A DNA stretch of 64,000 nt. Origin: a virus. Lineage: Duplodnaviria; Caudoviricetes. Positions 17,912-46,595 of this stretch are shown piece by piece (position 1 is the first letter of the stretch; each line of letters begins with the position of its first letter). The stretch lies in IMG/VR virus record IMGVR_UViG_3300028833_000066. One strand, given 5' to 3'. The notes under the pieces were generated by a model. The model did no database searches. It was not told where the DNA came from and saw nothing but the letters and a program-made list of their open reading frames with translations. Position numbers and translations under genes: made by a program.

Positions 17912-18255
17912 TCTCCCATTTCCTCCATATAATATACGCCTTTACCATGCTCCTTAGCATACGCAATTTCCGATTTAGTTGACGCACCAATATAACCATC
18001 TTTGTTAATAACATAAATTGCATCCGCCATATCAATCTTTCTCTTATGAATGTCGTCGAGCATTTCTTTCTGCTCGTCTGTAAATACATCACCTGCGTGG
18101 CCAAAACATCCTACGCTAATTACAATACATCCTTTGAGTGTAAGAATGCGATTAGCTTCTTCAAAGTAAGGTTTGAAGCGGGTACTGCCGCATAAGGTAA
18201 TTACAGGGTATCCGTGTTCCCATTTTAAATCAACTGTGTGTTCAAGCATTGTCAT
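17908..18255 (-). CDS. Nucleoside deoxyribosyltransferase-like/DUF4406-like protein
   Basis: ITLCGSTRFK...HKRKIDMADAIYVINKDGYIGASTKSEIAYA. Confidence 0.65.
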   Translation of the reverse strand: MTMLEHTVDLKWEHGYPVITLCGSTRFKPYFEEANRILTLKGCIVISVGCFGHAGDVFTDEQKEMLDDIHKRKIDMADAIYVINKDGYIGASTKSEIAYAKEHGKGVYYMEEMGE

Positions 18256-18616
18256 ATAACGCCTCCCAATTTAATGCCGTGCCGCAAACATAACAATTTG
18301 ATGCGTGCCAGTTAACTTCAGTTTGACACACTGGGCAATAAAAAGTAGGGGTACACATAACTGTATTTTTTTCGCCATAATATCTAGAAATATCCATTTT
18401 GGGCCTTGCTGTACATCTAGCTTCTGGTATAGAATCTTCTTCAATTAAAGGGCAGTCAGACATACGACGATGTGCCGAATCAAAAGTGTATCCAGCAGAA
18501 TGGTGTGAAATCCGACAATAAGGATAGTCACCCATTTCATCACAAGCAAAACAATCATCGCAACACTGCGGTATTGGCTTATTAATTTTAATCATTACAG
18601 AACCCCCAACATTCAC
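18242..18616 (-). CDS. Cys-rich zinc-ribbon protein
   Basis: CCDDCFAC, CPVC, CYVC..ALNW. Confidence 0.6.
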   Translation of the reverse strand: MNVGGSVMIKINKPIPQCCDDCFACDEMGDYPYCRISHHSAGYTFDSAHRRMSDCPLIEEDSIPEARCTARPKMDISRYYGEKNTVMCTPTFYCPVCQTEVNWHASNCYVCGTALNWEALYDNA

Positions 18617-18827
18617 ATAATTTATCTAGTGTTCTAAAGTCACCGCACCAGTCTGAATCAGAATTGACGCAGACTTCGCCACTATACCATTTACAATTAG
18701 CACAAGATGCTCGTGGTGCATTTCTAATTGAATCTTCATAAGACTTCCAATGCTTTGGCGGCCGAAGCCATCCATCAGTTATACCCATAACTTCTATTAG
18801 TAATTCATCACGGTCAATCAGTTCCAT
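18588..18827 (-). CDS. Cys-rich hypothetical protein
   Basis: MELIDRDELL start; CANCKW. Confidence 0.55.
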   Translation of the reverse strand: MELIDRDELLIEVMGITDGWLRPPKHWKSYEDSIRNAPRASCANCKWYSGEVCVNSDSDWCGDFRTLDKLCECWGFCND

Positions 18828-26013: not shown

Positions 26014-26165
26014 CTCATATATTTAGTTGCGGCCTTACCATTACTCTATACTATTTTCTACAAAATTATAGAAAAATTTTTCAATTCATAAGACAAATTG
26101 TCCAAACATTGGACTTTTTTGTCTTTTCTCTATCACTTTTTGCTAGTTAAAAATAAAAGGGCAGA

Positions 26166-26647
26166 TCATCCCTGCCCCATTAAAATTTTATATCCTTCCT
26201 CAATATCCACGTCTCTCAATCCTTCACTATACAGCGGCACCACCAAATGTGCCGTTACTTTGGTCTCGGGCGGGTAATCACGAATATCATTATCATCGTC
26301 AAAAATAACAAAATTATCGCAATTTTCATGGTTATGTACCCATTCCATAATCTGCTGGCCGCGGCCCATTCTTGCGTTATCATTAGTCGTACCATAAATA
26401 TATAGCCCATACAGAGCAAGTTGCTGTTCAAGCCAAGCTATATTTGAACAACCAGTACGCCAAGATGAGCACAACACAATACGTGCTCCAGTCTGTTTTA
26501 CAAGACGTTTCAGCCGCATAATACAATCCTGGTCAAGTAGCCCATAGGTCCACCATTCCTTGAAACCATTGTTAGTACAATACTCATTAAAGTTAGTTGA
26601 GTTTAGGACGCCATCAACTAAACGTCCAAGAAGATAAACTTGGACAT
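26166..26647 (-). CDS. HAD-family phosphatase (HAD_SAK-like) interrupted by a 5-nt insert inside the DxD motif
   Basis: MSKFIFLDV | TAGTT | DGVLN...IVLCSSWR...RGQQI..W..FVIFDDD; the downstream part is in frame with ORF 26166-26519. Confidence 0.7.
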
Positions 26648-26652
26648 TTATA

Positions 26653-26979
26653 TCACTCTCCTTTATCTTCTTTTACCTTAAAGGTATAAATATCGCCTTC
26701 AACGTCAATCAGTTCATAATTCTCATATACTTCCTTAAACGGCATTGTGTCACTAACTGTGGCACGAACAATCGGATAACGATGGGATGTAAAGGTGGCT
26801 AATGCACCAGCAGTTGCTACGATGATTCCGACAAAACATAGAACTGCGGCTACTGCCTCACTATCCTTTAAAGCTAAAAGAAATAAACCTAAACATACTA
26901 CACCAAAAACGCACAAGACTACACCTAGAAAAATACTAGGTTCGTCTCCTTTAAACCCTTCATACAAAATAGTCATCAT
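26653..26979 (-). CDS. Membrane protein (2 TM)
   Basis: Two hydrophobic segments. Confidence 0.6.
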   Translation of the reverse strand: MMTILYEGFKGDEPSIFLGVVLCVFGVVCLGLFLLALKDSEAVAAVLCFVGIIVATAGALATFTSHRYPIVRATVSDTMPFKEVYENYELIDVEGDIYTFKVKEDKGE

Positions 26980-28283: not shown

Positions 28284-28455
28284 ACTCATCATCCACCCTT
28301 AAATTAAGACCAAGCATATCGTGAAGATACATCAGTTCAAGCACAGGTTCTTTCTTAATCTGTGCCAAGCACTTATCTACCTTAATTGCCGCTTCCTCTT
28401 CACTCATACCCTTTATCTTCATAATCTCAATTAGTTCCTCTCTACTCCAAATCAA
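28270..28455 (-). CDS. Small helical protein (tandem paralog 3)
   Basis: LIEIMKIKGMSEEEA...MLGL. Confidence 0.5.
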   Translation of the reverse strand: MIWSREELIEIMKIKGMSEEEAAIKVDKCLAQIKKEPVLELMYLHDMLGLNLRVDDEYVET

Positions 28456-28879
28456 CGTCTGTCTCCTTATCTAGCGGCTACGCCCAGCATCGCCACGTCT
28501 TACCATACATCTTCAAACTATACCAATGTAATCGCGAATTATTATCACGCAAATATACCTCATTAATAAATGGGGGATATATTTTTGATAAGACCCAGCC
28601 GCAAGCCAGCGGCGAATTATCTAGCGGCTCAAACCATAATGGTGCTCCTTTTAGTGCCTTTTCACGCACTTCATCTTTACTTAATAAATGCTAACTAGTA
28701 GCCTCTAAATACTAATATACATCATTAAACAGCCGCAAATCATCGCATACATACGACGGCTCATTAGAGCCATCATCAATTGGTATAGCATAACCAAAAG
28801 GGCAATTGGCACAATAGTTGCGAGAATTACGCCAAGAGTTGAGAAAGCATTTAAGTGCCAGTAGTAGTTTGCTTTTCAT
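28427..28879 (-). CDS. Hypothetical protein (code 15, 4 TAG)
   Basis: ATG 28879 is in frame with ORF 28478-28669 through TAGs; CANCPFGY; YGKTWRCWA. Confidence 0.55.
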
Positions 28880-31225: not shown

Positions 31226-32581
31226 ATGAGTGATTTAATAACTTAGACAGTCAGCGATTTATAGGATTAGAATAAATTATTTTTTCGCCGCGGCTACTAT
31301 AATATACTCGACTGCGGCGTCCGCACCGGTAAAACCTATTGGGCCGTTAATAACTTAACTCAATTTACACGCGATGGTTAGTTAAATCGTATTTTGTTTC
31401 TTACAGATACTACAGCTCTTAAAGATTAGATTATTTAGGAGTATGATAATTGTGCTGATGTTGATGTGTTTTGGGAAAATAAAAGTGGTTGGGGCGAGTA
31501 GAAAAATAAGATTGGAGTAATGTGCTACTAGGGCCTTGGCTAGCGGGCTATGCGCGAAAACCTAGCTTTTCTTGAAGACATTGATGTTATATGTTGGGAC
31601 GAATGTGATAGTATATTTAACTTTGCGACGCAAGCGTTTGCCAAAGCTAGGAATACAGACTTCGCCCGCAAAACTATGAGTAATGCGGAAGTGCTTGCGG
31701 CAATACAAAGCTTCTCAACCAAGCGTGAGTATATGCCACTGGTTCTTCTCGGTGAATGGGAACAGATTATACTTGAAGGCCGCATTATGTGTATTGGCCT
31801 CTCCGCTACTCCGGAGCGAGCTAAAGCTTTTTACTATTCATTAGTAAGTGCTAGTTATGAAGGTAAGTTAGAGATGGGCTATCGTATGGCCAATGACATT
31901 TACTTCTATAACTTGGCTGACCATGTGCGAAAGCTTAGTCCAGCTCCTGATCGCGGATATTGGTGTTATTCACCGTATATTGAACCTAACCAGGGCATCG
32001 TAGCTATTGCGAAAGCCAATGGCTTCAACGCAATTGAGCTACATTCGCTTAACAATAGAGATAAGCCAATGACAGACGAATAGATGCGGGTATATAACAC
32101 TATCGTCACTACGGGGATGGTGCCTTTGGAATACAATTTTATTGTCGTTAATAAAGCTATGGAACGCGGCATAACTATAATAGATAAACGCTTTGATAAT
32201 GTAATCATTGATAGCTATGACGCGGCTGAACGTGAACAAGCAGCTCGTTAGACTTTTACTTATTAGCGGCATTTAAAAGCTTTTGCTCCTGAGGTCCCGT
32301 CAGAATTTCTTGGCGTGTGGCTACCTGTAGATAAGTGTAGAGAATTAGCTGAGTATATGGCGGTGCCTGAATTAGATAAGACTAATAAAAACAGCAATCG
32401 TATCATGACTTGGAATAAGTTAAAAGATTGTCTGCCTATGATTGGCTATACGGTTGAAGGTAAGCGAAAAAGTTTAAATGGTAAGGTATAGCAATGCTAT
32501 TTTATAACTGGTGAATGGCATGATGTTGAATTAAAAGATAATAATTTCCTCGCACTTGTAGATGCATAGATGAATAAATAA
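31226..32581 (+). CDS. SF2 (DExD-box) helicase-like protein, 451 aa (code 15, 14 TAG)
   Basis: AAGGAGG RBS; Walker A CGVRTGKT; motif Ia TTALKD-TAG; MCY-TAG; Walker B ICWDECD; motif III GLSATP. Confidence 0.85.
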
Positions 32582-32638
32582 AAAGTATAGATTTTTGATT
32601 TTTTAAGGAGGTAGTCAAAAATCTATACTTCTTTTTTT
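32579..32638 (+). terminator. Hairpin/terminator after the helicase gene
   Basis: AAGTATAGATTTTTGA...TCAAAAATCTATACTT followed by a T run. Confidence 0.55.
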
Positions 32639-32714
32639 TAAAAAAAATACTTTCCCATTATATTATAAAATAAATTTAATTATTTGTCAATAATTAAATA
32701 AATGGAAAAATTTT

Positions 32715-32835
32715 CCAGCTTCTCCACCTTTGCATCCCAGCTCCTCCACGTTGGTAAAATTTTCCAGCTCCACCCAGCTCCCATAAGCCCAGCTCCCAGC
32801 TTCTGACCCAGCTCCTGCGGGCTGGCTCCGCCTGG
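32715..32835. repeat. CCAGCT short-repeat cluster at the left edge of the promoter island
   Basis: 7 copies of CCAGCT plus 3 CTCCAC in 120 bp. Confidence 0.65.
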
Positions 32836-33076
32836 AAAATTTTTATAAATTTGTAAAAATTTGGCTGCCGGCAAATATTTGACTTGTGTCAAACACTTGA
32901 CAAAAATAGTTAGTTAGTCATAACTAACTCCTAAAAAATTTTTTTATTTGGGGCTTGACAACTTGACACGAATGTGATATAATGGTAGAGGTGGGAGAGT
33001 ATCTGGCGGCGCCGGCAGAATTTTGTGCCGGCATGATTTTTATGTCGGCAAAGAAAAAAAGGGTAGTTTCCTACCC

Positions 33077-33316
33077 TTATTCGCGATAGTCATCATAGAT
33101 TTCAATACTGTAAGGAATAGCCACAACTTCATGTGCGTCTACATCATGAGCACAACATCCTTGAGTAATTTCAATGTCTTCATTGAAAGCAAAGTTTCTT
33201 CCAATAATCAAGGGATGCTTTTGCTTGTGCATAAAATTTACCAATTCTTCAACGGTAGAGAAATTCTTTATTCCCATGTAGTAATCAGAAGAGGTGCGAG
33301 TGAGAACAAATTTCAT
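33077..33316 (-). CDS. Hypothetical early protein
   Basis: Own promoter, RBS and terminator; IEIYDDYRE C-terminus. Confidence 0.7.
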   Translation of the reverse strand: MKFVLTRTSSDYYMGIKNFSTVEELVNFMHKQKHPLIIGRNFAFNEDIEITQGCCAHDVDAHEVVAIPYSIEIYDDYRE

Positions 33317-33478
33317 AATGAATCCTTTCTGGTTTTAAGGACTGTCCTTGTCCTCTTTCATCTTTTATTATATTCATTTTATTTTATTTGTCAATACCTT
33401 TTTGAAAAAATTTTATGCCGGCACGAAAAAAGGGTAGTTTCCTACCCTTATGGTTCAACTTCAATATCATAGGCACTA

Positions 33479-33733
33479 TTAACAAATCTCTTTTTCATTT
33501 TTATACCATTTGTTTGTATCTGCGTAAGAAGGAAGTTTGTCAATATGGGTTATACGATTACAGGCGAGAGGAGGACATTCCATCATTTCATGAGCACGCC
33601 ATTCTGTGATTCGTGTGCCTTGAATGATAGGAGTATCATTTTTGAAATAGATAGTACCTACGCCTGTAACGGTTACGCGAACATAAGAGGGATGTTTTTC
33701 GTAGGCTTCAATTTGCTTGCGGATTTTATTCAT
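33479..33733 (-). CDS. Hypothetical early protein
   Basis: Own promoter and RBS. Confidence 0.6.
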   Translation of the reverse strand: MNKIRKQIEAYEKHPSYVRVTVTGVGTIYFKNDTPIIQGTRITEWRAHEMMECPPLACNRITHIDKLPSYADTNKWYKNEKEIC

Positions 33734-33857
33734 ATGATTGCTCCTTTCGGTTTGTGAGGTTTCCTTCCTCTTTCATCTTCTATTATACTCACTTTATTTT
33801 ATTTGTCAATACCTTTTTTGAAATTTTTGCCGGCGTAAAAAGGGCAGTTTTCTACCC

Positions 33858-34010
33858 TTACAGAATCACCATTTCACCATTCTGGTCTTTAACGCACTGG
33901 ATAAAGGCACCCGCCATGATGAGTTCATTCTGACGCTTGCGTGCTTCTTCAATGGTTGCGGCACGAGCAAAGTCCATGCGGTTATTGAGAATATAATAGA
34001 TTGTGTACAT
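33858..34010 (-). CDS. Small early protein (50 aa)
   Basis: AAGGAG RBS; MYTIYYILNNRMDF... Confidence 0.55.
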   Translation of the reverse strand: MYTIYYILNNRMDFARAATIEEARKRQNELIMAGAFIQCVKDQNGEMVIL

Positions 34011-34037
34011 TTTTTATTTCTCCTTTCTAACAACTGA

Positions 34038-34247
34038 TTAGAAACCTAAGATAAATGAAAGTTTTAAGGGAAAAGAAGTATTACAATCTGGACACTTGAT
34101 ATAATAATCAATATGATTGCGTGTATCTTTTTTCCAATGAATTTGCGGATCATCTGCGGTAAATTCAAAGACACACCCACACGCACATTTGATTGTGCAA
34201 ATTTTGACAAGATTATTTTGTTTTTTACCATGCTGAAGGATTTTCAT
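34038..34247 (-). CDS. Zinc-ribbon protein
   Basis: CACGC..CPDC. Confidence 0.65.
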   Translation of the reverse strand: MKILQHGKKQNNLVKICTIKCACGCVFEFTADDPQIHWKKDTRNHIDYYIKCPDCNTSFPLKLSFILGF

Positions 34248-34270
34248 TTTATTTCTCCTTTCTGATTAGG

Positions 34271-34489
34271 TTAATCGCCAACGATTGCTTCTGTCAAATC
34301 CATCCAATCATCATAACGTTCAAGAATCTTAACGTCTGTGGGTTCAAATACGCCTCCGCAACAACCACAAATTACGTTCGTGATAGTTTCACCATCGCCA
34401 CCAATGATAGCAATGCCACCGAAGATGTTGGTTTCACCTTCATTGATGAAGTCAGGATTGATGACTTCAAATTTTACTTGCTGATACAT
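34271..34489 (-). CDS. Hypothetical early protein
   Basis: VICGCCGGVFE; own promoter. Confidence 0.7.
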   Translation of the reverse strand: MYQQVKFEVINPDFINEGETNIFGGIAIIGGDGETITNVICGCCGGVFEPTDVKILERYDDWMDLTEAIVGD

Positions 34490-34622
34490 ATGTACATTCC
34501 TTTCTGGTTTAGAGTTTTCCTTCTCTTGATTACAATTAGATTATACCATAAATTTTAAGAATGTCAAGTGTTTTTTTGAAAAATGTGCCGGCCAAAGAGT
34601 TAGATAAATCTAACTCTTTTTA

Positions 34623-34904
34623 TTATAGCAATGCGGCAATAGCATTATCTACCGCTTCTTTATATCTTTCACCCAGACGAGCCGCTACAGCCTTGATAAG
34701 TTTGAGCGAAGTTGCGGGGTCGCTGAGAAAAGTTTCAATGGCATAGTCATCGCTATAATATACATGAAGATCTTCATGAAGATTACGCAAGAATTTACTG
34801 TCCCACGGGTTATAAATATCATTCTGTTCAAGCAAGTTCTCAACAATAGTGTCAATGTCGTCAGGCGTGATGGTCAGGGTGACAGTCTTGGTGATATTTT
34901 CCAT
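34623..34904 (-). CDS. Hypothetical early protein
   Basis: Own promoter and RBS. Confidence 0.65.
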   Translation of the reverse strand: MENITKTVTLTITPDDIDTIVENLLEQNDIYNPWDSKFLRNLHEDLHVYYSDDYAIETFLSDPATSLKLIKAVAARLGERYKEAVDNAIAALL

Positions 34905-35077
34905 TGTTTTGTCCTTTCTGGTGTTAAGGATTTTCCTTTCCTTTTTACAAGTAAATTATACCACAGATTAGAAAAAAGTCAAGAGTTTTTTGAGTTAGCG
35001 GCAACTAAATTTTATGCCGGCCAAGTTAGTCATAACTAACTTGCGGCAAAAAGAAAAGAGGGCCGAAGCCCTCTGCC

Positions 35078-35413
35078 TCACGCGAGGCGGTAGGTGTTGG
35101 GCTTGCCCTCAATCTTGACGATGCGATCAGCCCAGTTGTGGGTCAGACCGTACTGGATCTTACCCTTGGTGAAACCCTCAGGCAGATTAGCCTCAACCTG
35201 CTCGAAGATCTCCGCCACGGTCAGCGGGGCAGTCGTGAGGGCGAAGACACCGCGGACGATGTCCCACGCGGTCTCATAGCCCGCGTCCTTCTCGGCCTTG
35301 GCGACTGCACCCTTATTCAGTTCGGCTTCGAGTTCGGTCTTGATTTCGTCAATATTGGTCACGGTCTCACCATTGAGGAAGGAAACGAGAGACTTGATGG
35401 TGGCAATACGCAT
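35078..35413 (-). CDS. Winged-HTH-like early protein, paralog A1
   Basis: LTVAEIFE..FTKGKIQYGLTHNWADRIVKIEGKPNTY. Confidence 0.75.
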   Translation of the reverse strand: MRIATIKSLVSFLNGETVTNIDEIKTELEAELNKGAVAKAEKDAGYETAWDIVRGVFALTTAPLTVAEIFEQVEANLPEGFTKGKIQYGLTHNWADRIVKIEGKPNTYRLA

Positions 35414-35620
35414 AGTAGATACCCTTTCTGGTTTTTGAGACTGTCCTTGTCTTTTCATTTATATTCTACCACATTTCGTGGAGAATGTCAAGCATTTTTT
35501 AGGAAGTTGCGGAAGGTTTAACAGTCCCAATTACGCATTACCGCCCAACTAATGCCACCGCTTACATCCTTATTATAGCACAGGATTTGCTGTTTGTCAA
35601 GGGCTTTTTGAAGATTTTTT

Positions 35621-35775
35621 GTTTCAAGGTTTGCTACTTGTGGGCTCGAACTACTCTTACGCCATTTCCAATTACCAACCGAAGGAGTAGCAGAGAGAGG
35701 AGAACCAAGTTGAACGGTATTGTAGGTTTGACTGGGCGTCACCATCACCAGATGGAGCACTCTCTCCCTTGGAAC
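35621..35775 (-). ncRNA. Candidate small RNA with paired ends
   Basis: Promoter 35782-35809; 5' GUUCCAAGG pairs with 3' CCUUGAAAC; no convincing ORF. Confidence 0.4.
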
Positions 35776-35884
35776 AATTATATTATATCATAATTTGCCA
35801 GAAAGTCAATTACAAAAGTGTTAAGATTTTATTACAATTATATTAACAGGCCGGCTCAGTTAGATACAACTAACATAAGAGCAA

Positions 35885-35991
35885 AGAGAAGGGGAGGAAT
35901 CGAACCTCCCTTGGTTTACCACAACCTACGGCGAATCGAACGCCCTACGACACCTTTCGGGTATCTGCTGTTACCAGTGAGCCACTTCTCT
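35885..35991 (-). ncRNA. tRNA-like RNA with acceptor stem, D-like arm and two T-loops, but no canonical anticodon arm
   Basis: AGAGAAG/CTTCTCT stem; TGGCTCACTGGTAACAGC; GGCG-TTCGATT-CGCC; GGGAGG-TTCGATT-CCTCCC; promoter at 36150-36177. Confidence 0.65.
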
Positions 35992-36238
35992 TTTAATTGT
36001 GAAGAATTTTGGCTGTCCCTCGGGTGCCTTGTATCATTCTTCACAGTTCCGTATAGGGACTTGCAAGTGAGGTTGTCTGTGAGGATGCCTTACCCCGAAT
36101 GACTTATCAGGGGCCTCGTTCCGTTTTCCTCTCCCCTTGGAACAATTACATTATACCGCAATTTTGAGAATTGTCAAGTGGTTTTGAAAAAAAAGATTGC
36201 TAAGTTTTTAACAACCCGTGACCGGCAAAAAAGTTAGA

Positions 36239-36454
36239 TTACTCTAACTCTTCTTCTTCCTCTTTATAATATTTTTGATTGTCCTCAAAGCACTCTTTTG
36301 CGAAAAAGCAAATACCATGATGGTTGAGATAACAATGGGCACAATGATGATTATTTTGGATACATTTAGCAAGGTATTCATTTAATACTTTTATTGTTAA
36401 TTCCTCTTTATATATGGCTTCGATTTGTCGCTGTAACTGTTTTTCATTCATCAT
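36239..36454 (-). CDS. Small Cys/His-rich protein
   Basis: CAHCYLNHHGICFFAKEC. Confidence 0.55.
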   Translation of the reverse strand: MMNEKQLQRQIEAIYKEELTIKVLNEYLAKCIQNNHHCAHCYLNHHGICFFAKECFEDNQKYYKEEEEELE

Positions 36455-36728
36455 CACTATTATCCTCCATCGTATCTTCATATCCGTATACATCGCCTGC
36501 CCACCGAATTTCATCTTCTGCAAAATCCGTAGGGGCATCGGGGTCAACATCATCTGCGGCGAGCCAATCTTCCCAACTCTCCCAGAATGCACCCCAGTCA
36601 TCGCAATCTTCCATCGGGTCATCAATGTGACAAATACCCATCTGGTCGCAGTAGGGGCAATCGCCATAGGCATTCACGGGGCAGTAGGTATAGTCGCCAT
36701 TGTAGGTTCCCTTTTTCACATCACGCAT
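36444..36728 (-). CDS. Acidic Cys-rich protein
   Basis: CPVNAYGDCPYCD..CHIDDPMEDCDD; GGAGG RBS. Confidence 0.65.
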   Translation of the reverse strand: MRDVKKGTYNGDYTYCPVNAYGDCPYCDQMGICHIDDPMEDCDDWGAFWESWEDWLAADDVDPDAPTDFAEDEIRWAGDVYGYEDTMEDNSDDE

Positions 36729-36903
36729 TTTTCTTTTCCTCCATTTTCATTTTATGATTTCTCCAAATTTTAGCATAGAAGACTACTTTTTCAGGATATT
36801 GTATTTTTGAAAAACCTTCACAAACCTGATAGAAAGTATCAACATAGATAGCATGGCAATGCTTACAGAGAAACTTGATGATCGTATTTATAATGGTGGT
36901 CAT
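36721..36903 (-). CDS. Hypothetical early protein
   Basis: AAGGAGG RBS; promoter 36926-36954. Confidence 0.55.
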   Translation of the reverse strand: MTTIINTIIKFLCKHCHAIYVDTFYQVCEGFSKIQYPEKVVFYAKIWRNHKMKMEEKKNA

Positions 36904-37094
36904 TGTTCTTCCTCCTTTACGCTCTCATTATAGCATTGTTTATACCATTTGTCAAGAGTTTTTCTTGCGGTTTTACGAAGTTTTTTCTTTAAGCGACGAC
37001 GTGCGGGAGTGCTTTGATCTATCCATTGACGACACCCTGTATTCAAATCCCAAGCTGCAAGTTCATCATGATATTTATGCTCGTTCTTACGCAT
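36900..37094 (-). CDS. Basic hypothetical protein
   Basis: AAGGAGG RBS; promoter 37117-37146. Confidence 0.55.
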   Translation of the reverse strand: MRKNEHKYHDELAAWDLNTGCRQWIDQSTPARRRLKKKLRKTARKTLDKWYKQCYNESVKEEEQ

Positions 37095-37168
37095 TTATTA
37101 TCCCTCCTTACATGCCTATTATAGCATACATAGGAAAGTTAGTCAAGCCTAATTTTTTCGCCGGCACC

Positions 37169-37444
37169 TTAACGGCTATAATTAAGGATGTCACGACCTT
37201 CCTTAAAGTCATAGATAGAAATCATAGTGCAGTCTTTGTCATATAGATAGATAGCGGCGGCTTGAAGTAAAGCAATAATATCGTCACCGCATTCACTCTT
37301 ACCGTTCTGGCCGTATACCGTAATCATTTGATACCGATGCTTCTTATCACGAAGCTGCTGACGCAAAGAATCATTTTCAAGACGTAACTGGTCAAGTTCC
37401 TCTTCCAATTCGCTAATACGCAGGCTCATTTCAAATTCATCCAT
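37169..37444 (-). CDS. Coiled-coil early protein
   Basis: Own promoter and RBS. Confidence 0.65.
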   Translation of the reverse strand: MDEFEMSLRISELEEELDQLRLENDSLRQQLRDKKHRYQMITVYGQNGKSECGDDIIALLQAAAIYLYDKDCTMISIYDFKEGRDILNYSR

Positions 37445-37542
37445 CGTGATTCCTCCTTAGTTATTTCTTCTTACAGTTTGATTATATCATAAAGTAGACA
37501 GTTAGTCAAGACTAATTTTCTTGCCGGCGGCAAATGGGAACA

Positions 37543-37746
37543 TTAGTTCCCATTCGCACGACTGACAGAAAGGTCTACCAGTTCATAAGAACGCTCAATA
37601 TCAAACCGACAGCCGCATTTATCACAACGACATGACCACCACTGTGCGGCACCATCCAGTCCGCTAAAATCATCACCGTAATCTTCAATGGTATAATCTT
37701 CCGAACCACACACGGGGCAAGCCTCTTTGTCAAAATTTTTACGCAT
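37543..37746 (-). CDS. Zinc-ribbon protein
   Basis: CPVC...CDKC. Confidence 0.65.
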   Translation of the reverse strand: MRKNFDKEACPVCGSEDYTIEDYGDDFSGLDGAAQWWSCRCDKCGCRFDIERSYELVDLSVSRANGN

Positions 37747-38131
37747 TTTCCTGTGCCTCCTTTTCCTTTTCCTTGGCTTCACGCTTAGCCTTGTCGCGGG
37801 CGATCTTCTCTTCCTTTGCCTTGACCTTTTCGGCTTTCTCAGCCTGCTTGGTGTTGTAAGCATTGATTTCGTTCTGCATCAGTTCGCGGGCAGTCATGTC
37901 TTCGCGTTCCTCTGCTACGATGACGCCTACGCGGCAATAGCGTTCGACGCCATTTTTATCGGTCAGAATGCAACCCCACTGTCTATCATTGATTCTGCGA
38001 TACTCTGCATTATCTGTCCAAAAGGCATTGGGTTTAACACCATTAACAGAAGCAGAGTCCAGGTCAAAAATTTCAGTGAAGATACGGTCACGGAGGTCAG
38101 CATCAACAACAGTCTTCGCAATCTTCGCCAT
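37739..38131 (-). CDS. Early protein with Lys/Ala/Glu-rich tail, paralog B1
   Basis: KAEKVKAKEEKIARDKAKR; similar to 44245-44619. Confidence 0.7.
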   Translation of the reverse strand: MAKIAKTVVDADLRDRIFTEIFDLDSASVNGVKPNAFWTDNAEYRRINDRQWGCILTDKNGVERYCRVGVIVAEEREDMTARELMQNEINAYNTKQAEKAEKVKAKEEKIARDKAKREAKEKEKEAQENA

Positions 38132-38435
38132 AGAGATTCTCCTTTCGGTTTGTAGGGTGTCCTTCCCTTGATTACAGTTAGATTATATCACACATTTTGA
38201 TTATTGTCAAGAGATTTTTCAGAAGTTTCTGAAAATTTTTGTGTCCTCTCCGCATAAGCCAACCCTCTGGGGTGCTTATGCACGTGCGTTTCTTTACCGC
38301 CCCACCGAAGATTTCTTCGGGATGGTCGTCACATCCTCTTGACATTATTGATTATACCTGATGCCAAGACTTTTGTCAAGTAGTTTGTGCGATTTTCTTT
38401 TGTTAAGTTTTTCACAAGCGGGGCCGGCATAATAG

Positions 38436-38888
38436 TTAGTTATGACTAAACAACTGTGCTTCAAAGTCACGGGCAAGTTTGCGGTGTTCATAGGTGGCAA
38501 GCCAATTAATAGCCCATTCAGTGGCTATATATTCAGAAGGAATGTCAAAGTATACACTGAAAGCCGCGTCACGCTTAATCTCGTCATCCTCAATCCAATC
38601 AATTTCTTTGCGGGTTGCCCAATGTCCTAACTCGTGGAGGATAGCAAGAGTAATGTCAGAGAAATTATTTGCGAGAGGACAACGATTGACAAAATCTTCA
38701 CGAAATGCAACGTCCTCTTCTTCGGGTATGTAATTAATAACAGAGGGCACAAGCAAACGCGGGTTTGGCTTGTTATTAATATCCATTCCCCAATTATTGC
38801 TCATTCGCTTGCGTGCGATTGTTACGCGGTCGCCAATGGCCTTGCTTGCAAACTCGCGGATTAATTGAATCTGCATCATCTTTATCAC
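38436..38888 (-). CDS. HExxH metallopeptidase-like protein
   Basis: ILHELGHW...E..A..WA. Confidence 0.65.
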   Translation of the reverse strand: MIKMMQIQLIREFASKAIGDRVTIARKRMSNNWGMDINNKPNPRLLVPSVINYIPEEEDVAFREDFVNRCPLANNFSDITLAILHELGHWATRKEIDWIEDDEIKRDAAFSVYFDIPSEYIATEWAINWLATYEHRKLARDFEAQLFSHN

Positions 38889-38953
38889 TCCTTACACCCG
38901 TATTATATCACGCACAATAGAGTTAGTCAAGTATAACTTTGCCGGCGGCTGTC

Positions 38954-39205
38954 TCAACCCGCATAGAGTTGAGACAGAAAGTAGAGGTTGAGGACAATGC
39001 TGGAAAAATGAAGCAAGAAGTCATTTACATGGCGGTTCTGGTTAGTAAAGTCCTTAAAGATACCAATAAGAGCAATGCCAAGGCCGAACCAAGCAGAGCC
39101 GAAACCGCAAGTGATGATGAGAACAACATTGAGAACCATGCCCGCAGCACGCAAGTCCTGCCATTCAAGTTTATAAGGGGCATAAAGATTAAAGAACTTA
39201 CGCAT
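38954..39205 (-). CDS. Small membrane protein
   Basis: Hydrophobic segments; own promoter. Confidence 0.6.
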   Translation of the reverse strand: MRKFFNLYAPYKLEWQDLRAAGMVLNVVLIITCGFGSAWFGLGIALIGIFKDFTNQNRHVNDFLLHFSSIVLNLYFLSQLYAG

Positions 39206-39519
39206 CTGGATTTCCCCTTCCCTTTTGTTCATCTATATTATATACTAATTTTTGATTTTTGTCAAGAGTCAATTTTGAAGTCCGCCACTCAATCGGGGCT
39301 ACCCGCTCATCCTCTTGCAGTGGGGTTCTCTTCCTCTTGACATCTTGATTATAGCATATAATGTGAGGTTAGTCAAGCCTAATTTTTATGCCGGCGACAG
39401 TTAGTTATGACTAAATAACTATTATGATAAAAAAAGAAAACCACCCCGAAGGGTGGCAAGGATGGGTTATTTCTCACCAATTACGCGACGCCAGAGATAG
39501 TGGCAACCTTGCGGGAGGC

Positions 39520-39852
39520 TTACGCCTTCCGATAGGCGTTGACCTTACCCTCAACCTTGACGACCTCGCCCGCCCACTGGTGGGTCAGAGCGTAGGACAG
39601 CTTGGACTTGGTGAAGTCCTCGGGAACCTCACCCTCGATGGCTTCCCACAGTTCAGCCACAGTCAGCGGAGCCTCAGTCAGCCCAAACTGAGCGAACACG
39701 ATGGGCTTAGCGGCTTCGTAGATTGCGGCCTTAGCAACCTTTACCGCATCGCCGCGATGAATTTCGCGGTTCAGTTCGTCCATAACCTCGGCGTTGTCGT
39801 AGTTGTAGTTGGTCAGAGCAGTGTAGATGGCATTCAGAGTAGCATTCTTCAT
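39520..39852 (-). CDS. Winged-HTH-like early protein, paralog A2
   Basis: LTVAELWE..FTKSKLSYALTHQWAGEVVKVEGKVNAY. Confidence 0.75.
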   Translation of the reverse strand: MKNATLNAIYTALTNYNYDNAEVMDELNREIHRGDAVKVAKAAIYEAAKPIVFAQFGLTEAPLTVAELWEAIEGEVPEDFTKSKLSYALTHQWAGEVVKVEGKVNAYRKA

Positions 39853-40334
39853 AGGGCAATTTCCTTTCTGGTTTTTAAGTGTTTTCCTTCACTTGATGTC
39901 TTTATTATATCATGGATTTGGGAGTTTGTCAAGGGGTTTCGCAAACTTTTTTCGCCCATTATGTTTGCTGGTGGCCAAATGTTTCTGTTTCCATGCGTTT
40001 TGTCTCTGTTGACTTTCGGCAACCACCTTGACTTGTCAGTGTGACTCCCTCACCTGACAATATTAATTATACTCTAATTTTGATTTTTGTCAAGCATTTT
40101 TTGAAAATTTCTTTGATAAATTTTTGACAATTGATGGTTATGTAGTCATAACTAACCGCCGCGCCGGCACGAAAAAAGGGTAATTAGATACCCTTCTTTA
40201 CAGAATCCTACACCAGAAAGCCGCGAGAAGAAGCCCCAAAAAGTAGTGAAGAATTATAGGTTTATCATCTTTGCGGCAAGCATTAGCGGTATATACTATC
40301 CAGACAAGAGTAAGCACGATGGCAATTGCAATTT

Positions 40335-40778
40335 TCATTTTATTACTCCTTTCAGTACGCGGATGATTTCGTTAGGGGTGAAAGCGCCATCGCCCCATGC
40401 CTTGCGGTTCGGTTCCTCATCATCGAATAGGATGCCACCACCGCAAGCGGTGCGCTTGTCAGTACCATAGCGGACAATCTTGATTTCGTCCCATTCCACA
40501 GAAGGCAGATGCTTATGAAGCCATACCATTTTAGCAAGGGCAATCTCGCCATTGTAGAGATCAGAGCCACCACGGGAAGTCCACGAGATGATACCGATTT
40601 CATAACCATTCGCCTGTACCCTGTGAAGAAGCCGAGCGAGATATGCCATATTCACAAGGGGCTTCGCGATGTCGTAGGGACGAGTATCTTCATTGATAAG
40701 ATTTTCAAGCCACCCTTCCACGCCGTAGAGGTCAGCAATCGTTCCGTCCATGTCGAACCAAATAGTCATTTCTGACAC
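40335..40778 (-). CDS. HAD-superfamily 5'(3')-nucleotidase-like protein, paralog C1
   Basis: IWFDMDGTIADLY...ILFDDE. Confidence 0.8.
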   Translation of the reverse strand: MSEMTIWFDMDGTIADLYGVEGWLENLINEDTRPYDIAKPLVNMAYLARLLHRVQANGYEIGIISWTSRGGSDLYNGEIALAKMVWLHKHLPSVEWDEIKIVRYGTDKRTACGGGILFDDEEPNRKAWGDGAFTPNEIIRVLKGVIK

Positions 40779-41059
40779 CTTCCTTTCTTGGTGTAATTAT
40801 ATTATACTCTATTTTTAGATTTTGTCAAGGGGTTTTAAGAAAGAATTTTGATTACGCATCTTTCTTCTTTCCGAACGTGGGCAATTTGATAAAGCCAAAT
40901 GCGAATAATTTGACTCAATTTCAGTTCGCGGATTGTCTGCTGTCCTTTGCAATTACGGAGATAAACTTTCATTCTTGGCACCTTCCTTTCATCCTTATTA
41001 TATCATATTGGTAGTAGTTAGTCAAGCCTAACTTTTCTGCCGGCGCCGAGGCGGCAGGC

Positions 41060-41776
41060 TCAAAGAGCCCACCGCTGTTCGATGTCATCGGGTTCAAGTT
41101 CTGCTTCGCGTTCCATTGCCTTGTGCATCCGCACGCACGCCGCGAAAATTTGTGCTTCAATCTGTACATCTTCAAGACCAGTGTGTGATTCAGTGAAGTT
41201 ATTGTCGCCAGTGAGGAATCGCCACAGAATTTCGGCGGTCTTGCGAACCTGCGGGACCTTATGCTTGGTCATATAACCATTTTCCTTGCAGAAAGCCACA
41301 TAATCAGCACGCTTGCAAATGGTATCCGTGGCCATCTTCATAGTGTCCCACACAGGCAAACCATAGGGGAAGAAGTACCGCCGCTTGCTCTTGGTCTGAT
41401 ACCGCATAGTGGTGTTCATTGTCCGCACATCAAACCGTGCATTGTGGGCAAGGATAGCCTTAACTTTGTAGTCTTCACAATCTTGCCGAAGCTGACGCCA
41501 AATGCCCCAAGTGTTGCGGACAATACGCTTGCCCTCGCGGATGTCCTGCTTGTACTGCGGGATTTTATCAGCAAAGAATGCTTCATTCATAGCCTGCGGC
41601 ATTTCGTAGAACACATCGCTATTCACGAACGAACGTTCGCAATATACCTTTCCTTCATTATCTACGATAGCCCAACCGCTATCATACACTTGACCGCTCG
41701 TGAGGTCAAGCTGACCCTTCTCATCCTTGGGAGTGTTGCAAGTCTCGCCATCAAACACAAGATACAGTTCCTTCAT
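41060..41776 (-). CDS. DEDDh 3'-5' exonuclease, paralog D1
   Basis: FDGET; AHNARFD; HTGLED. Confidence 0.8.
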   Translation of the reverse strand: MKELYLVFDGETCNTPKDEKGQLDLTSGQVYDSGWAIVDNEGKVYCERSFVNSDVFYEMPQAMNEAFFADKIPQYKQDIREGKRIVRNTWGIWRQLRQDCEDYKVKAILAHNARFDVRTMNTTMRYQTKSKRRYFFPYGLPVWDTMKMATDTICKRADYVAFCKENGYMTKHKVPQVRKTAEILWRFLTGDNNFTESHTGLEDVQIEAQIFAACVRMHKAMEREAELEPDDIEQRWAL

Positions 41777-41887
41777 TTCGTCTTACCCCTTTCATTCGGT
41801 ACAGTCTTATTATACATTAGGGGAGGGGCTTTGTCAAGAGTTTTTTCAAACTTTTTTCAAATTTTCGGCCGGCGAAAAATGCGAAAA

Positions 41888-42412
41888 TTACATTTCCGCA
41901 TCCCACCCGTAGTCAATCACTACGGGCTTGCCCTTGTAATAGCCCACATTGAACTCGTGGAGGTCGCAAATGTTCTCCGTGAGCCAGTCATATTCTTCAT
42001 CGGTCACATAATCGCCCCAATACCGCCATTCGTCACCAACGCCATTGATACGCGGCATAATGGACACGATGCGGCCACCGATCGCCATCACGGTAGTTTT
42101 GGCGAGCAGATAGGCATAACCCGCATCAACCGCACGGGCATAGACTTCCTGCTCGGTAGAGTTATCACCCGCACGGCAACCACCGAAATCATCAAGCCAA
42201 TCTTCCGCGGGAGTAAGGTCAAACTTGATGACATAATCTGCACGCATAATGGCAATACGGGACACGCCGTGAGCATAGTTAAGCGGACGACTATGGGTAG
42301 AATTGTAATCTTTAATAGCTTCTTCAAAATCAGCAAGGGTAGAGCATGCAGAGAACAGGCGGACGAGCAGAGCGGCGAATTTAGCGGCACGAACTTCGTA
42401 AGTGTTCTTCAT
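41888..42412 (-). CDS. Protein-kinase-like protein
   Basis: HGVSRIA..VIKFD..EQEVY...DLHEFNVG..VVIDYG. Confidence 0.7.
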   Translation of the reverse strand: MKNTYEVRAAKFAALLVRLFSACSTLADFEEAIKDYNSTHSRPLNYAHGVSRIAIMRADYVIKFDLTPAEDWLDDFGGCRAGDNSTEQEVYARAVDAGYAYLLAKTTVMAIGGRIVSIMPRINGVGDEWRYWGDYVTDEEYDWLTENICDLHEFNVGYYKGKPVVIDYGWDAEM

Positions 42413-42608
42413 CTTGATGTCCCCTTTCATTCGGTACATCTTGATTATACAATAACGGGGTACAAATGTCAAGGGGTTTTTGAAAAAAAGAGCAAGAAAT
42501 TTTCGTGCCGGCACGATTTTAAAATGCCGGCAGGTTAGTCATAACTAACTAACTATTATGAAAACAAAATAAAATGCCACCCGATAGGGGTGGCATTTCA
42601 GGTGAGCC

Positions 42609-42947
42609 TTACACCTTGAGGGTGTAGGTGTTCACCTTGCCAGTGGTCTTAATCACGCGGTCAGCCCACTGGTGACCGAGGGCATAGGTCAGCTTGCCCT
42701 TGGTGAAGTCAGAACCGACCTTGCCATCAAGGCTGTCAAAGATTTCGGCAACGGTGGCGCCTTCGGTCGCAGTAGCGAGAACCTCACGAACCGCGTTCCA
42801 GTTGTCCGCGTAAACCTGAGCCTTCGCGGCCTTTGCGGCATCACCGCGATGGAGTTCGGCGTTAACCTCAGCGAGAATGGCATCCTTGTTTTCGAAGTCA
42901 ACAGTGGACAGGACAGAAGCGATGGTGGACAGAGTGATGTTCTTCAT
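42609..42947 (-). CDS. Winged-HTH-like early protein, paralog A3
   Basis: ATVAEIFD..FTKGKLTYALGHQWADRVIK. Confidence 0.75.
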   Translation of the reverse strand: MKNITLSTIASVLSTVDFENKDAILAEVNAELHRGDAAKAAKAQVYADNWNAVREVLATATEGATVAEIFDSLDGKVGSDFTKGKLTYALGHQWADRVIKTTGKVNTYTLKV

Positions 42948-43206
42948 ATAGAACCTTCCTTTCTCGTTTGTTTACGCGGTGTCGTTCCGCAATCTTTTTT
43001 TTGTGTTCCTCTTGGAACATCTTTATTGTATCACACCTTGCGGTGTTTGTCAAGAGGTTTTTCAAACTTTTTTTGGGGTGGGCATCCTGCCCTCGGCTTG
43101 CTTTCCCCTCCTGACATATTCTATTATACTCAGATTTTAAATTGTGTCAAGCATTTAAGAGCAAAAAGATTGACAACTTTTTAACAAGCCGCCGGCATAA
43201 TTGGCG

Positions 43207-43359
43207 TCAGTCATCATACTGACGCCCTTTGTGCTTTGGGGGCTTCCGCCGTTTATCGGGGATAATTTTAGTCACAGGGGAAATGGAACCCCAGTCACCG
43301 CGGATAGAGCGGACAATTTCAAATTGGGATTTAACCTGAGCCTTACGCTTCATTTTCAT
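43207..43359 (-). CDS. Small basic protein (50 aa)
   Basis: AAGGAGG RBS; IRGDWGSISPVTKIIPDKRRK. Confidence 0.6.
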   Translation of the reverse strand: MKMKRKAQVKSQFEIVRSIRGDWGSISPVTKIIPDKRRKPPKHKGRQYDD

Positions 43360-43450
43360 TGCCTCCTTCTTGGTACATTTTGATTATATCATAGTCAAAG
43401 CATTTTGTCAAGAGGAAATTTTCGGCTGGCCAAAAAGGATGCGTAATTTT

Positions 43451-44104
43451 TTACGCATCCCAGTTGAGACAAGTGGCATAAATGCGGGCTTCAATTTCAG
43501 TATCGCCAACGCCAGTATGCTCCTCCTCAAAATCAGTATTTTGAGTAAGGAATCTCCAAATTGCTTCCGCTGTTGCTCGCGGTCTCGGGATGGCGTGGTT
43601 GGTCATCAAACCATTTTCTTTACAAAAGGTTATATATTCATCAGTTTTACAAATGGTATTTCGTGCCAGTTTCATGGTATCAATTACAGGCATATTGTAC
43701 GGGATGAAATAACGTTTTTTGCTTTTAGTTTGATAACGCATAGTAGCATTGAGTACTCGAATATCGAAAGACGCATTGTGAGCGATGATAGCTTCAACAT
43801 GCCACTTGTCGCACAAGTCTCGGAAAATCTTATACATTCCCCAACTATCCGTGACTGTATATTTTTTGTCCCAAATGTCCCGCCAATACTGCGGAATCTT
43901 ATCCGCAAAATAAGCATCTTTCATCGTCTCGGGCATAGAGATGAAAACATCACGATTGATCACGGGCACAACTTCAAGGGTCTTGCCCTCGTCATTAATG
44001 ACGCGGAAGCAAGCGTCATAAACCTGCCCATCATCTGAAAATAGTTTACCATTAATTTTATAAGTGTTTGCGGTTTCAGTGTCCACGACCATTTTATTGC
44101 CCAT
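43451..44104 (-). CDS. DEDDh 3'-5' exonuclease, paralog D2
   Basis: VDTET; AHNASFD; HTGVGD; shares TMRYQTKSK.RYF with D1. Confidence 0.8.
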   Translation of the reverse strand: MGNKMVVDTETANTYKINGKLFSDDGQVYDACFRVINDEGKTLEVVPVINRDVFISMPETMKDAYFADKIPQYWRDIWDKKYTVTDSWGMYKIFRDLCDKWHVEAIIAHNASFDIRVLNATMRYQTKSKKRYFIPYNMPVIDTMKLARNTICKTDEYITFCKENGLMTNHAIPRPRATAEAIWRFLTQNTDFEEEHTGVGDTEIEARIYATCLNWDA

Positions 44105-44244
44105 TTTAGAAAGCCTTTCTGGTTTGGGAGGTGTCCTTCCTCTTTTCAATGATGATTGTATCATATTTGTGCGAGTTTGTCAAGCCTAACTTTTTGGCCG
44201 GCGAGGTTAGTTATGACTAACTATTATATATAAAAAAATGGGGA

Positions 44245-44619
44245 TTACTCCCCATCCTTTTCGGCCTTCTTCGCGGCCTTTTCGGCACGCCGCTTGGCGT
44301 CAGCCGCGATCTTCGCGGCTTTCTTTTCCTCGGCGACCTTGTGCTTCTCGGCCTTTTCGGCACATTCGCGAGCGTAGCCATCCGCGGCGGCGTAGCCATC
44401 GTAGGCATTGTAGCCACCTTTACCGTTTCGAGTACCGCGAGGAGTAGAAACTTTTACCACAATCCACGCATCATCGCCCTCAGCGTCAACGCAAGGCAGG
44501 GCAATTTCATTGGAACTCACGCGGAGGACTTCTTCATCAGACAGAAGCCCGATGAACTTGTCAAGGAAGGAAGCACGGAGAGCGGATTCGATAGCAGTCT
44601 TAGTCATAGCCATAAGCAT
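44245..44619 (-). CDS. Early protein with Lys/Ala/Glu-rich tail, paralog B2
   Basis: KAEKHKVAEEKKAAKIAADAKRR. Confidence 0.7.
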   Translation of the reverse strand: MLMAMTKTAIESALRASFLDKFIGLLSDEEVLRVSSNEIALPCVDAEGDDAWIVVKVSTPRGTRNGKGGYNAYDGYAAADGYARECAEKAEKHKVAEEKKAAKIAADAKRRAEKAAKKAEKDGE

Positions 44620-44894
44620 TTCCTTTCTGGTTTTTAAGAGTTTCCTTCTCTTATGTCTTGATTATACTACAGAGTGGAGGTTTTGTCAAGAGGAATTTTT
44701 TATCATCGTGAGGAGGTGTCCCTCATCCTCTTGACAATTATTATTATACTCAAAATTTGATTTTTGTCAAGTATTTTTTTCTATGAATATTTATAAATTT
44801 TTTGTATAATTATGCACTGCCGGCACGAAAGTTAGTAATGACTAAATAACTATTGTATGCGTCAAAAGAAAAAAGACCCCGAAGGGTCTTTTAC

Positions 44895-45227
44895 TCACCG
44901 CAGGCGATACACATTACCGCCCTTGGTCTGCTCAACGCTCACAGCATCGTTCCAGTAGTGCAGGAGAGCATACTGTACCTTACCCTTGGTCATGCCATTG
45001 GGCAGAGTATCGCCACAGCTCTCCATCAGCTCCGACAGCGTAGCTCCATCAGTAGCCAGCTTCAGCTGTCCAAGCACCAGCTCGCGGGCCGATTCATACA
45101 GCTCCCGATTCGCAGCAGCCTTCTCGGCATTGCGATTCAGCTCCCGCATCAGCTCCGCACGGGCATCCGCCATCTCAGGCACGTTCTCAAGGAAGGAAAC
45201 AAGGGACTGCATAGTGGTCTTCTTCAT
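44895..45227 (-). CDS. Winged-HTH-like early protein, paralog A4
   Basis: ATLSELME..MTKGKVQYALLHYWND. Confidence 0.75.
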   Translation of the reverse strand: MKKTTMQSLVSFLENVPEMADARAELMRELNRNAEKAAANRELYESARELVLGQLKLATDGATLSELMESCGDTLPNGMTKGKVQYALLHYWNDAVSVEQTKGGNVYRLR

Positions 45228-45620
45228 AGTGATATCCTTTCTGGTTTTTAGGACTTTTCCTTGTCCTCTTTACATCTTGATTATACCACAGTTTTGAGGT
45301 CTTGTCAAGTGTTTTTTGAAACTTTTTTTTCGTTTGCGGCAAGATTTCCGTGGCCTTTGGAATCTTGGGAGAGCAGTCCATCTTGCCGCATTCTTTCGGG
45401 TGGTGCCCCTCTGTCCTCCCGACACTTTATATTATACTCGGATTTAGGTTTCTGTCAAGTGTTTTTCGCAAAAAGTTTTGTAAAGTTTTTAACAATGTTG
45501 TTAGTTAGTTATAGCTAACTCGGCCGCCGGCAAAAGAGTTAGTTTCAGCTAACTCTCGTAATTATGCCGGCAGAAAAGTTAGTCGCAGCTAACTTTGCCG
45601 ATAAAAAAACTGACAGCGGC

Positions 45621-46070: not shown

Positions 46071-46595
46071 CGTGGTGGCCTCCCTTGCTTTCATCTTACA
46101 AGTAGATTATACAGTGCCGGACCGATTTTGTCAAGAGGTTTTTTGAAAAAAGTTATTACATTTCTGTTAAGATTTTATAGACTTTTCGTAATACTTTTGT
46201 AATAGTTTCGTGCTTTAACGTGTTAAAGCGGAGATACCTCGGCAGGTGAGGTATCCCACGGTGGAGGTACTTCGGCAGGTGAGGTATTGCCGGCAAAGTA
46301 GTTAGTGACAACTAATCTGGTTAGTCATAACTAACTCTTATAATACTTATTTAGTCATAACTAACTCCGCGAAAATAGTTAGTTAGTTATAACTAACTTA
46401 AAAAATCGCACCCTCGCCGTGGGTCCGACCGGTTCTCCGCTCCTCTGGTTATAGTATAGCACACTATGGAAAAATGTCAAGAGGTTTTCAAAAATTTTTT
46501 GAAAAAATTTTGCCGGCAAGATTTTGAAAAAAGTGCTTGACAAGTCCGGACAAGTATGTTATAATCAAGATGTAAAGAGAAGCAAGGAGGAAGAA

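Follow-up and report, generated by a model that had tools for sequence, protein, structure and literature searches.

A candidate natural stop-hop in the catalytic motif of a phage HAD_SAK_2 phosphatase gene

To our knowledge, the use of translational bypassing has been established in very few natural systems: gene 60 of phage T4 and its homologues, one lineage of yeast mitochondria, and a single gene of a Streptomyces phage. The classic hoppers include valine tRNA, and O'Connor et al. reportedly described hopping by tRNA-Val in 1989. Synthetic stop-hops are inefficient, at ~1%. In gene 60, a stop codon follows the take-off codon, the take-off and landing codons match, and a 5' stem-loop has been proposed to pull the mRNA forward (PMC5009743). 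A 2016 review describes short stop-hops in synthetic constructs only (PMC5009743). In full-text searches of the literature, we came across neither an account of bypassing in HAD genes nor a paper that names the HAD_SAK_2 Pfam family.

The HAD_SAK_2 phosphatase locus described here resembles the synthetic Escherichia coli stop-hops of +5 and +6 (Weiss, Dunn, Atkins, and Gesteland, 1987, as cited in PMC5009743) in its succession of a codon, a stop, and a matching codon, with one residue for the whole stretch. Those constructs were artificial and of low efficiency, whereas the present arrangement is natural, conserved, selected, and accompanied by a co-varying predicted hairpin. With the terminase-gene bypass of Streptomyces phage Hau3 (PMC10732093) it has in common a short natural phage gap, a slow A-site codon, and local RNA structure, but in Hau3 the A-site codon is the rare sense codon UUA, the gene is a terminase gene, and the host is of high GC content. 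Furthermore, bypassing in Hau3 has been demonstrated by mass spectrometry in E. coli, whereas our case is a prediction from sequence. The mitochondrial byps of Magnusiomyces capitatus (Lang 2014; Nosek 2015; both as cited in PMC5009743) are likewise short inserts of varied length with an imperfect, two-out-of-three match between take-off and landing, comparable to that of our alleles with a GCC landing triplet. According to the same review, however, these mitochondrial inserts are 27 to 55 nt long, occupy many sites in each genome, and depend little on context, whereas here there is one site with a specific upstream hairpin. The +1 frameshift of prfB, the RF2 gene, is similar in that an A-site stop acts as a sensor and slow decoding lets the P-site tRNA re-pair; it differs in shifting by +1 onto an overlapping codon, in having an upstream Shine-Dalgarno sequence, and in being autoregulatory, and the gene discussed here encodes no release factor.

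The gene lies in a window of 64,000 nucleotides, the whole stretch of DNA analyzed, which is one end of a 179,585-bp virus record (an uncultured phage of ~180 kb). It is on the minus strand, as are all of its features given below, and its catalytic motif is interrupted by TAG plus two bases. A Shine-Dalgarno sequence, GGAGAG (26656..26661), is found 8 nt upstream of the ATG (26647-26645), within the final codons of the upstream gene, which stops at TGA (26655-26653); the leader GGAG(AG)TGAT is common to all alleles with a comparable gap. The first coding piece (26621..26647) consists of nine codons, ATG followed by TCC AAG TTT ATC TTC TTG GAC GTT, and encodes Met-Ser-Lys-Phe-Ile-Phe-Leu-Asp-Val, which includes strand 1 and, from HAD motif I, the nucleophile Asp. 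Its last codon, GTT (26623-26621), is the putative take-off codon. TAG (26618..26620), which would occupy the A site at take-off, begins the 5-nt coding gap TAGTT (26616..26620), recognized from the sequence and from alignment with relatives, and the putative landing triplet, GTT (26618-26616), overlaps the G of TAG. The second coding piece (26169..26615; 149 codons, ending at the last sense codon) begins with GAT GGC GTC CTA AAC, where the resume codon GAT is the second Asp of DxD, and holds the remainder of the HAD_SAK_2 domain, including CSSWR and FDDDND. Its frame is offset by 2 nt from that of the first piece and is closed by TGA (26166..26168). The first-pass annotation had described the GAC GTT TAG TT GAT layout on this strand, and both the layout and its coordinates were confirmed from the sequence. 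A strong terminator-like hairpin with a T run (26148..26178) overlaps the phosphatase stop codon, which suggests that this gene is the end of a transcription unit.

When the 5 nt are skipped, the product contains FIFLDVDGVLN, motif I of the HAD phosphatases, identical to that of intact relatives, which are 158 residues long (P0002, 99% identical; P0003, 86%). Only in this way does the window allele give the motif, hhhhDxDG, with both Asp residues in one chain. The earlier proposal that removing the 5 nt restores this motif in frame with an otherwise intact gene held up: the 149 codons are open, and Pfam HAD_SAK_2 (PF18143) matches the second piece alone with an E value of 1e-19 and 71.7 bits (cut-off, 27.5) across profile positions 8 to 138 of 139. 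The second piece also matches PHROG 1818, and the whole genome has only this one HAD_SAK_2 gene. If TAG is instead read through, frame 0 stops early, as had been expected, after four more codons (Leu-Met-Ala-Ser) and a TAA. The downstream frame is open for 19 codons 5' of the Asp codon in the window and has no ATG, GTG, or TTG between an upstream TAA (26675-26673) and that codon; the next start in this frame is an internal Met at 26519. Searches of a phage GenBank collection found no close relative, and a sequence search of solved structures gave no match. Pfam found nothing in the neighboring open reading frames, which are small and, in the window as in relatives, have no nuclease domain.

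Close relatives found by protein search are either intact or have been called as 117-residue truncations or with a foreign N terminus. Alignment of the DNA of the relatives called truncated or with a foreign N terminus revealed the same GAC GTT TAG plus two bases. A pattern scan of metagenomes recovered two more GAC GTT TAG alleles and also an equal break in a different HAD_SAK_2 gene, 30% identical, on a 178-kb contig and in its own promoter-like context; this gene was the only gap allele outside clade 1 that the TAG-NN scan recovered, the other matches being unrelated and due to chance. Among the relatives of this second gene, six have the gap and others are intact, with up to ~96% identity to the gap alleles. 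Forty-three IMG/VR loci were fetched irrespective of the break: four carry the gap (L020, L021, L024, and L030), 38 have an uninterrupted DxD[G/T/S], and one more has Asp-Ile-Asp-Glu. A recurrent insert at the same DxD position of homologous phage HAD genes, which the first-pass annotation had raised, was thus found in 16 sequences besides the window. The resulting 17 gap alleles come from independent assemblies and fall into four well-supported subclades, in a family whose clades are ~30% identical to each other. Pattern searches of IMG/VR gave no match to the exact 31-nt sequence and only two chance matches to any 5-nt insert at Asp-Val/Asp-Gly. A variable-gap pattern run against 596 Gb of prokaryote genomes gave 12 matches, all in unrelated ordinary frames, and identified no host or prophage.

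TAG sits directly 3' of a Val or Ile take-off codon in 17/17 alleles, and what follows varies: gaps of 5, 7, and 23 nt occur in five forms, TAGTT, TAGTC, TAGCC, TAG plus 4 nt, and TAG plus 20 nt. The triplet before GAT is a Val codon in 13 of the 17 (GTT in 10, GTC in 2, GTA in 1) and GCC in the other 4 (L004, L011, L060, and L061). Eleven alleles pair a GTT take-off codon with a Val triplet, four pair GTT with GCC, and two (L020 and L030, ATT TAG TT) pair ATT with GTT, where the take-off tRNA could form a G-U pair at codon position 1. Codons that match at take-off and landing, as claimed earlier, are therefore present in the window (GTT/GTT) but are not universal. In both alleles with longer gaps, L021 (GTT TAG plus four bases ending in GTC, 7 nt) and L024 (GTT TAG plus twenty bases ending in GTA, 23 nt), the landing triplet is clear of TAG and the gap ends in a Val codon like the take-off GTT, an outcome with a chance probability of ~1/256. 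The frame shift needed is +2/-1 for 5 and 23 nt and +1 for 7 nt. A simple frameshift cannot join the pieces of the 23-nt allele, where the downstream frame is closed within the gap by a TAA that lies two codons ahead of the Asp. The three gap lengths therefore exclude one common frameshift and fit a hop. As far as the sequences tell, a putative hop from the Val or Ile codon to the triplet before GAT is the only route that gives the canonical motif in every allele. Other routes considered give either no correct DxD motif or the wrong frame: reinitiation after TAG, a pair of consecutive +1 shifts, and an 11-nt hop that leaves GAC and lands on GAT.

Both pieces bear the marks of purifying selection. 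All 17 second pieces are full length, with neither stops nor indels. Among the gap alleles of clade 1, the 32 codons that separate the gap from the first internal Met have a dN/dS of 0.02 to 0.35 (8 synonymous changes and 1 nonsynonymous in L004 versus L011), and these low values indicate that translation in the downstream frame includes the codons immediately 3' of the gap. In the rest of the gene dN/dS is 0.13 to 0.29, equal to that between two intact alleles. For gap-allele bodies overall it is 0.11 to 0.29, with dS between gap alleles reaching 1.4 to 1.7, and gap-gap pairs of the second clade have a dS of 0.8 to 1.7 and a dN/dS of 0.15 to 0.19. The selection on the downstream frame at issue in the first-pass annotation is thus purifying (dN/dS, 0.02 to 0.35), and the relaxed selection and further lesions 3' of the break that mark a pseudogene are not seen in the 17 bodies. 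Changes in the first piece all fit the first frame, being synonymous or Val/Ile (ATG/GTG, TCC/TCT, ATC/ATT, TTG/TTA, GAC/GAT, and GTT/ATT), whereas the same changes read in the downstream frame are radical (Arg/Cys, Gly/Arg, Leu/Phe, and Asn/Ser).

An alignment of 2.2 kb of the window with the intact-allele contig L001, from an otherwise near-identical phage, has 43 differing columns, 33 of which are inside a 54-nt patch (26618..26671). When the second pieces are placed on a protein tree, intact alleles are scattered among gap alleles, and the gap state needs at least seven changes. The confinement of differences to the patch and the number of changes on the tree together indicate that the 5' module has been swapped between phages; judged from these alignments, gap and intact alleles are exchanged by short-patch recombination. 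The argument from selection is slightly weakened by this exchange, since a body may recently have carried an intact 5' end.

Folding and compensatory pairs predict a 10-bp hairpin (26621..26648) that covers both the start codon and the take-off codon; it is the strongest signal at the locus and had not been noticed at first pass. Its 5' arm, AAUGUCCAAG (26648-26639), contains the AUG and pairs with the 3' arm, CUUGGACGUU (26630-26621), which ends with the take-off codon; the loop is 26638-26631. A 76-nt fold of the window allele has an energy of -19.6 kcal/mol (z = -3.6, with 0/200 shuffles as good), compared to -7.8 (z = -0.4) for an intact allele. For the 42 nt ending at the take-off codon, the window gives -12.6 kcal/mol, the gap alleles give -6.1 to -12.6, and intact alleles give -1.3 to -7.4. 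All gap alleles have the predicted hairpin, which intact alleles lack or form less stably. Codon usage is allele specific: Phe-Leu-Asp is encoded by TTC TTG (once TTA) GAY in 17/17 gap alleles, compared to TTT CTT GAY in 8/8 intact alleles examined, and within clade 1 Ser2 is TCC or TCT in gap alleles versus AGT in intact ones. The building of a hairpin that ends at the take-off codon would explain these synonymous choices. With the arms in register, 103/119 positions are paired, versus 36 to 69/119 when one arm is slid by 1 to 3 nt; pairs were counted with our own script anchored on the arms, which MAFFT could not align across clades. Compensatory changes include C-G to U-A in L030, through TCC to TCT together with TTG to TTA, and G-C to A-U in L061-63; L020, L024, and L060 have G-U intermediates. 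Whether it is G or A, the base that opens the take-off codon pairs with the U of AUG. Two other stems found in the window, one of 5 bp (GGACG/CGUCC) around the gap and one of 7 bp (UAGUUGA/UCAACUA) that begins at the stop, are not kept in the TAGCC alleles or in other clades and were therefore left out of the proposed signal. Between the Shine-Dalgarno sequence and the true start (26648-26656), the window has a tiny start-stop unit, GTG ATA TAA; the same place has ATG TAA in L004, L020, and L024 and ATG TAG in L012. Such a unit, overlapping or abutting the true ATG, might modulate initiation on a hairpin-sequestered start.

Comparison with T4 gene 60 and its homologues in MobA cassettes (Huang 1988; Manning and Atkins, bioRxiv 10.1101/2022.08.31.505936) reveals several shared features: UAG after the take-off codon, a landing codon for the same tRNA, a hairpin 5' of take-off, a gap inside a conserved enzyme motif, and the coexistence of alleles with and without the gap. 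L024 further resembles gene 60 in having a CC-tetraloop-GG hairpin whose 5' side includes the take-off codon and, ahead of the landing codon, an AU-rich stretch. Its 23-nt gap folds into GUUU-A-GCCC GAAA GGGC-AAAU, in which CCC-GAAA-GGG begins right after TAG and is followed by the AU-rich stretch and the landing codon. This layout matches that described for the gene 60 take-off stem-loop, the tip of which is CC-tetraloop-GG with GNRA variants. The differences are also clear. The gene 60 gap is 50 nt long (the shortest reported is 20) compared to 5 nt here, the enzyme is a topoisomerase rather than a HAD_SAK_2 protein, and the nascent-peptide signal of gene 60 lies 14 to 30 residues from the P site, for which the chain of 9 to 10 residues made here is too short. 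Neither the window nor its relatives have a nuclease gene near the gap, so the locus is not a member of the MobA homing-endonuclease cassettes. The 5' stem-loop of gene 60 has been proposed to refold as it leaves the ribosome and so to propel the first bypass steps; the hairpin described here is in the right position for such a role and, by analogy, may play it.

Given the gene anatomy, the recurrence of the gap, the purifying selection on both pieces, and the allele-specific, co-varying predicted hairpin, we estimate a probability of roughly 70% that the locus uses a programmed short translational bypass, a natural, conserved, and minimal stop-hop with its own RNA signal. The hop suggested at first pass thus gains support from the recurrence, the selection on the downstream frame, and the gap lengths of 5, 7, and 23 nt. 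Under the proposed mechanism, initiation at the ATG (26647) would be followed by translation of nine codons, which would melt the hairpin that they form. Peptidyl-tRNA-Val would then be on GUU in the P site, with UAG in the A site, and slow decoding of UAG would allow the codon-anticodon pairing to come apart. The hairpin, refolding behind the ribosome, could help to pull the mRNA forward, and the tRNA would re-pair 5 nt downstream on the GUU composed of the G of UAG and UU, with decoding resuming at GAU. The product would be a single 158-residue HAD_SAK_2 phosphatase with the canonical Asp-Val-Asp-Gly. We infer here the occurrence of the hop, its efficiency, and the hairpin as its driver, and several observations count against them. 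The GCC landing triplet of four alleles would pair with tRNA-Val at only two of three positions, and two alleles would take off from ATT and land on GTT. With a nascent chain of only 9 to 10 residues, the essential nascent-peptide signal of gene 60 could have no counterpart acting in the same way, and part of the selection on the body could date from times when it had an intact 5' end.

The 5-nt insert might instead simply inactivate the gene, with the 54-nt patch having spread this null allele by recombination onto bodies that recently carried intact 5' ends. We regard this as unlikely, even though the body of the window gene is identical to that of an intact-allele phage, with differences confined to the patch, the gap and intact alleles are interleaved on the tree, and the phage may be able to do without the gene. 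An inactive allele would not retain a Shine-Dalgarno sequence, an ATG or GTG start, an open frame of 9 to 10 codons, and TAG at a fixed place, nor would it retain Val as the landing triplet where the gap is 7 or 23 nt long or a hairpin with compensatory changes. There is no second lesion in the 17 bodies, even between gap alleles at a dS above 1, and the gap itself has diversified into five forms. Among the alternatives listed at first pass, a plain pseudogene is accordingly improbable, and assembly error is excluded by recurrence; an origin from a mobile element is possible and would be compatible with a hop. A sequencing or assembly error has a negligible probability, although the record is metagenome-derived, given that the same gap is found in 16 other sequences, from different samples and assemblers, next to allele-specific substitutions.

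We also attach little credence to another mode of decoding, either a -1 (or +2) frameshift near TAG, which would add two residues between the Asp residues, or initiation in the downstream frame, which would give a pseudo-enzyme lacking the nucleophile Asp. The 19 open codons upstream of the Asp in the window would suit such decoding, and in some relatives (P0004 and P0022-24) the downstream frame does contain an ATG, which gene callers use. On the other hand, no slippery heptamer is present, a shift of +1 would be needed for the 7-nt gap but of -1 for the 5- and 23-nt gaps, and the TAA in the 23-nt gap is in the target frame. Initiation in the downstream frame would have no start codon in the window or in L004, L011, L021, L024, and L030; in these five relatives the frame is closed by a stop with no later start. 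The substitutions 5' of TAG are radical in that frame, and motif I, which all intact relatives retain, would not survive two extra residues or a lost Asp. Equally hard to credit is a regulatory leader, in which the short open reading frame, hairpin, and TAG serve as an off-switch or attenuator and the phosphatase is either not made or made truncated from the internal Met. The predicted hairpin does sequester the start codon, and the internal ATG does give a 117-residue open reading frame annotated by gene callers (P0008, P0011, and P0012), but purifying selection acts on the 32 codons between the gap and the internal Met just as it does on the others, and a product starting at that Met would lack motif I and strand 1.

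If the stop-hop operates as proposed, the locus would offer a natural series of 5-, 7-, and 23-nt gaps at one site, with the intact alleles as built-in controls. The small co-varying hairpin can be mutated and restored, so that the minimal requirements of a hop would be testable in a 60-nt cassette, as would the proposed driver role of RNA refolding behind the ribosome. For annotation, the consequence is that gene callers give truncated 117-residue proteins, or a false N terminus without the catalytic Asp.

TAG appears to be a sense codon in much of the genome. With TAG read through, the window has frames of 2752 codons (21 TAG) and 965 codons (9 TAG), and the whole genome (G000) has a 4974-codon frame with 153 TAG and others of 2754, 2089, and 1849 codons. 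Of five gap-bearing phage records, at least four appear TAG-recoded (the window genome, G001, G002, and G004), and G003 is ambiguous in a crude test. ARAGORN called 22 tRNAs in the genome, including Val(TAC), and no suppressor. A tRNA-like gene outside the window, at G000:C1 ~101,720-102,110 (L082:2323-2710), has a 297-nt insert after anticodon position 35, in which Rfam at the gathering score called no group I intron; when the insert is removed, ARAGORN calls a 91-nt tRNA with anticodon CTA (an amber suppressor) and a long variable arm. From these features the suppressor tRNA would be of class II and so Ser-, Leu-, or Tyr-like rather than Gln-like. TAG thus appears to be reassigned, and the amino acid need not be the Gln considered at first pass.

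A more speculative extension of the stop-hop reading, which we consider possible but doubtful, is that the hop acts as a sensor of the phage's code switch, so that the state of the genetic code would set when an early enzyme is made. While UAG was unreadable, ribosomes would hop and phosphatase would be made. The suppressor tRNA would first have to lose the 297-nt insert in its anticodon loop; once it was active, UAG would be read and synthesis would stop at the TAA four codons later.

The phosphatase gene is surrounded by a block of small minus-strand genes, in which 46/49 open reading frames end in TAA or TGA. Two small genes within this otherwise TAG-free block, at 28427-28879 and 18242-18775 (minus), have apparent in-frame TAG codons, four and one, respectively, and the block is therefore not strictly standard-code. 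Elsewhere in the window, the region 32,000-51,500 is GC-richer (0.41 to 0.49, compared to ~0.37 elsewhere) and has only short open reading frames, on both strands; little is gained in this region when TAG or TGA is taken as sense, in contrast to the flanking late genes, which are rich in TAG. An Rfam tRNA match at L082:1556-1744 (G000:C1 ~100,955-101,143) covers model positions 1 to 71 and spans 189 nt; ARAGORN made no call there, and the span of the match suggests a second tRNA with an insert, of ~117 nt.
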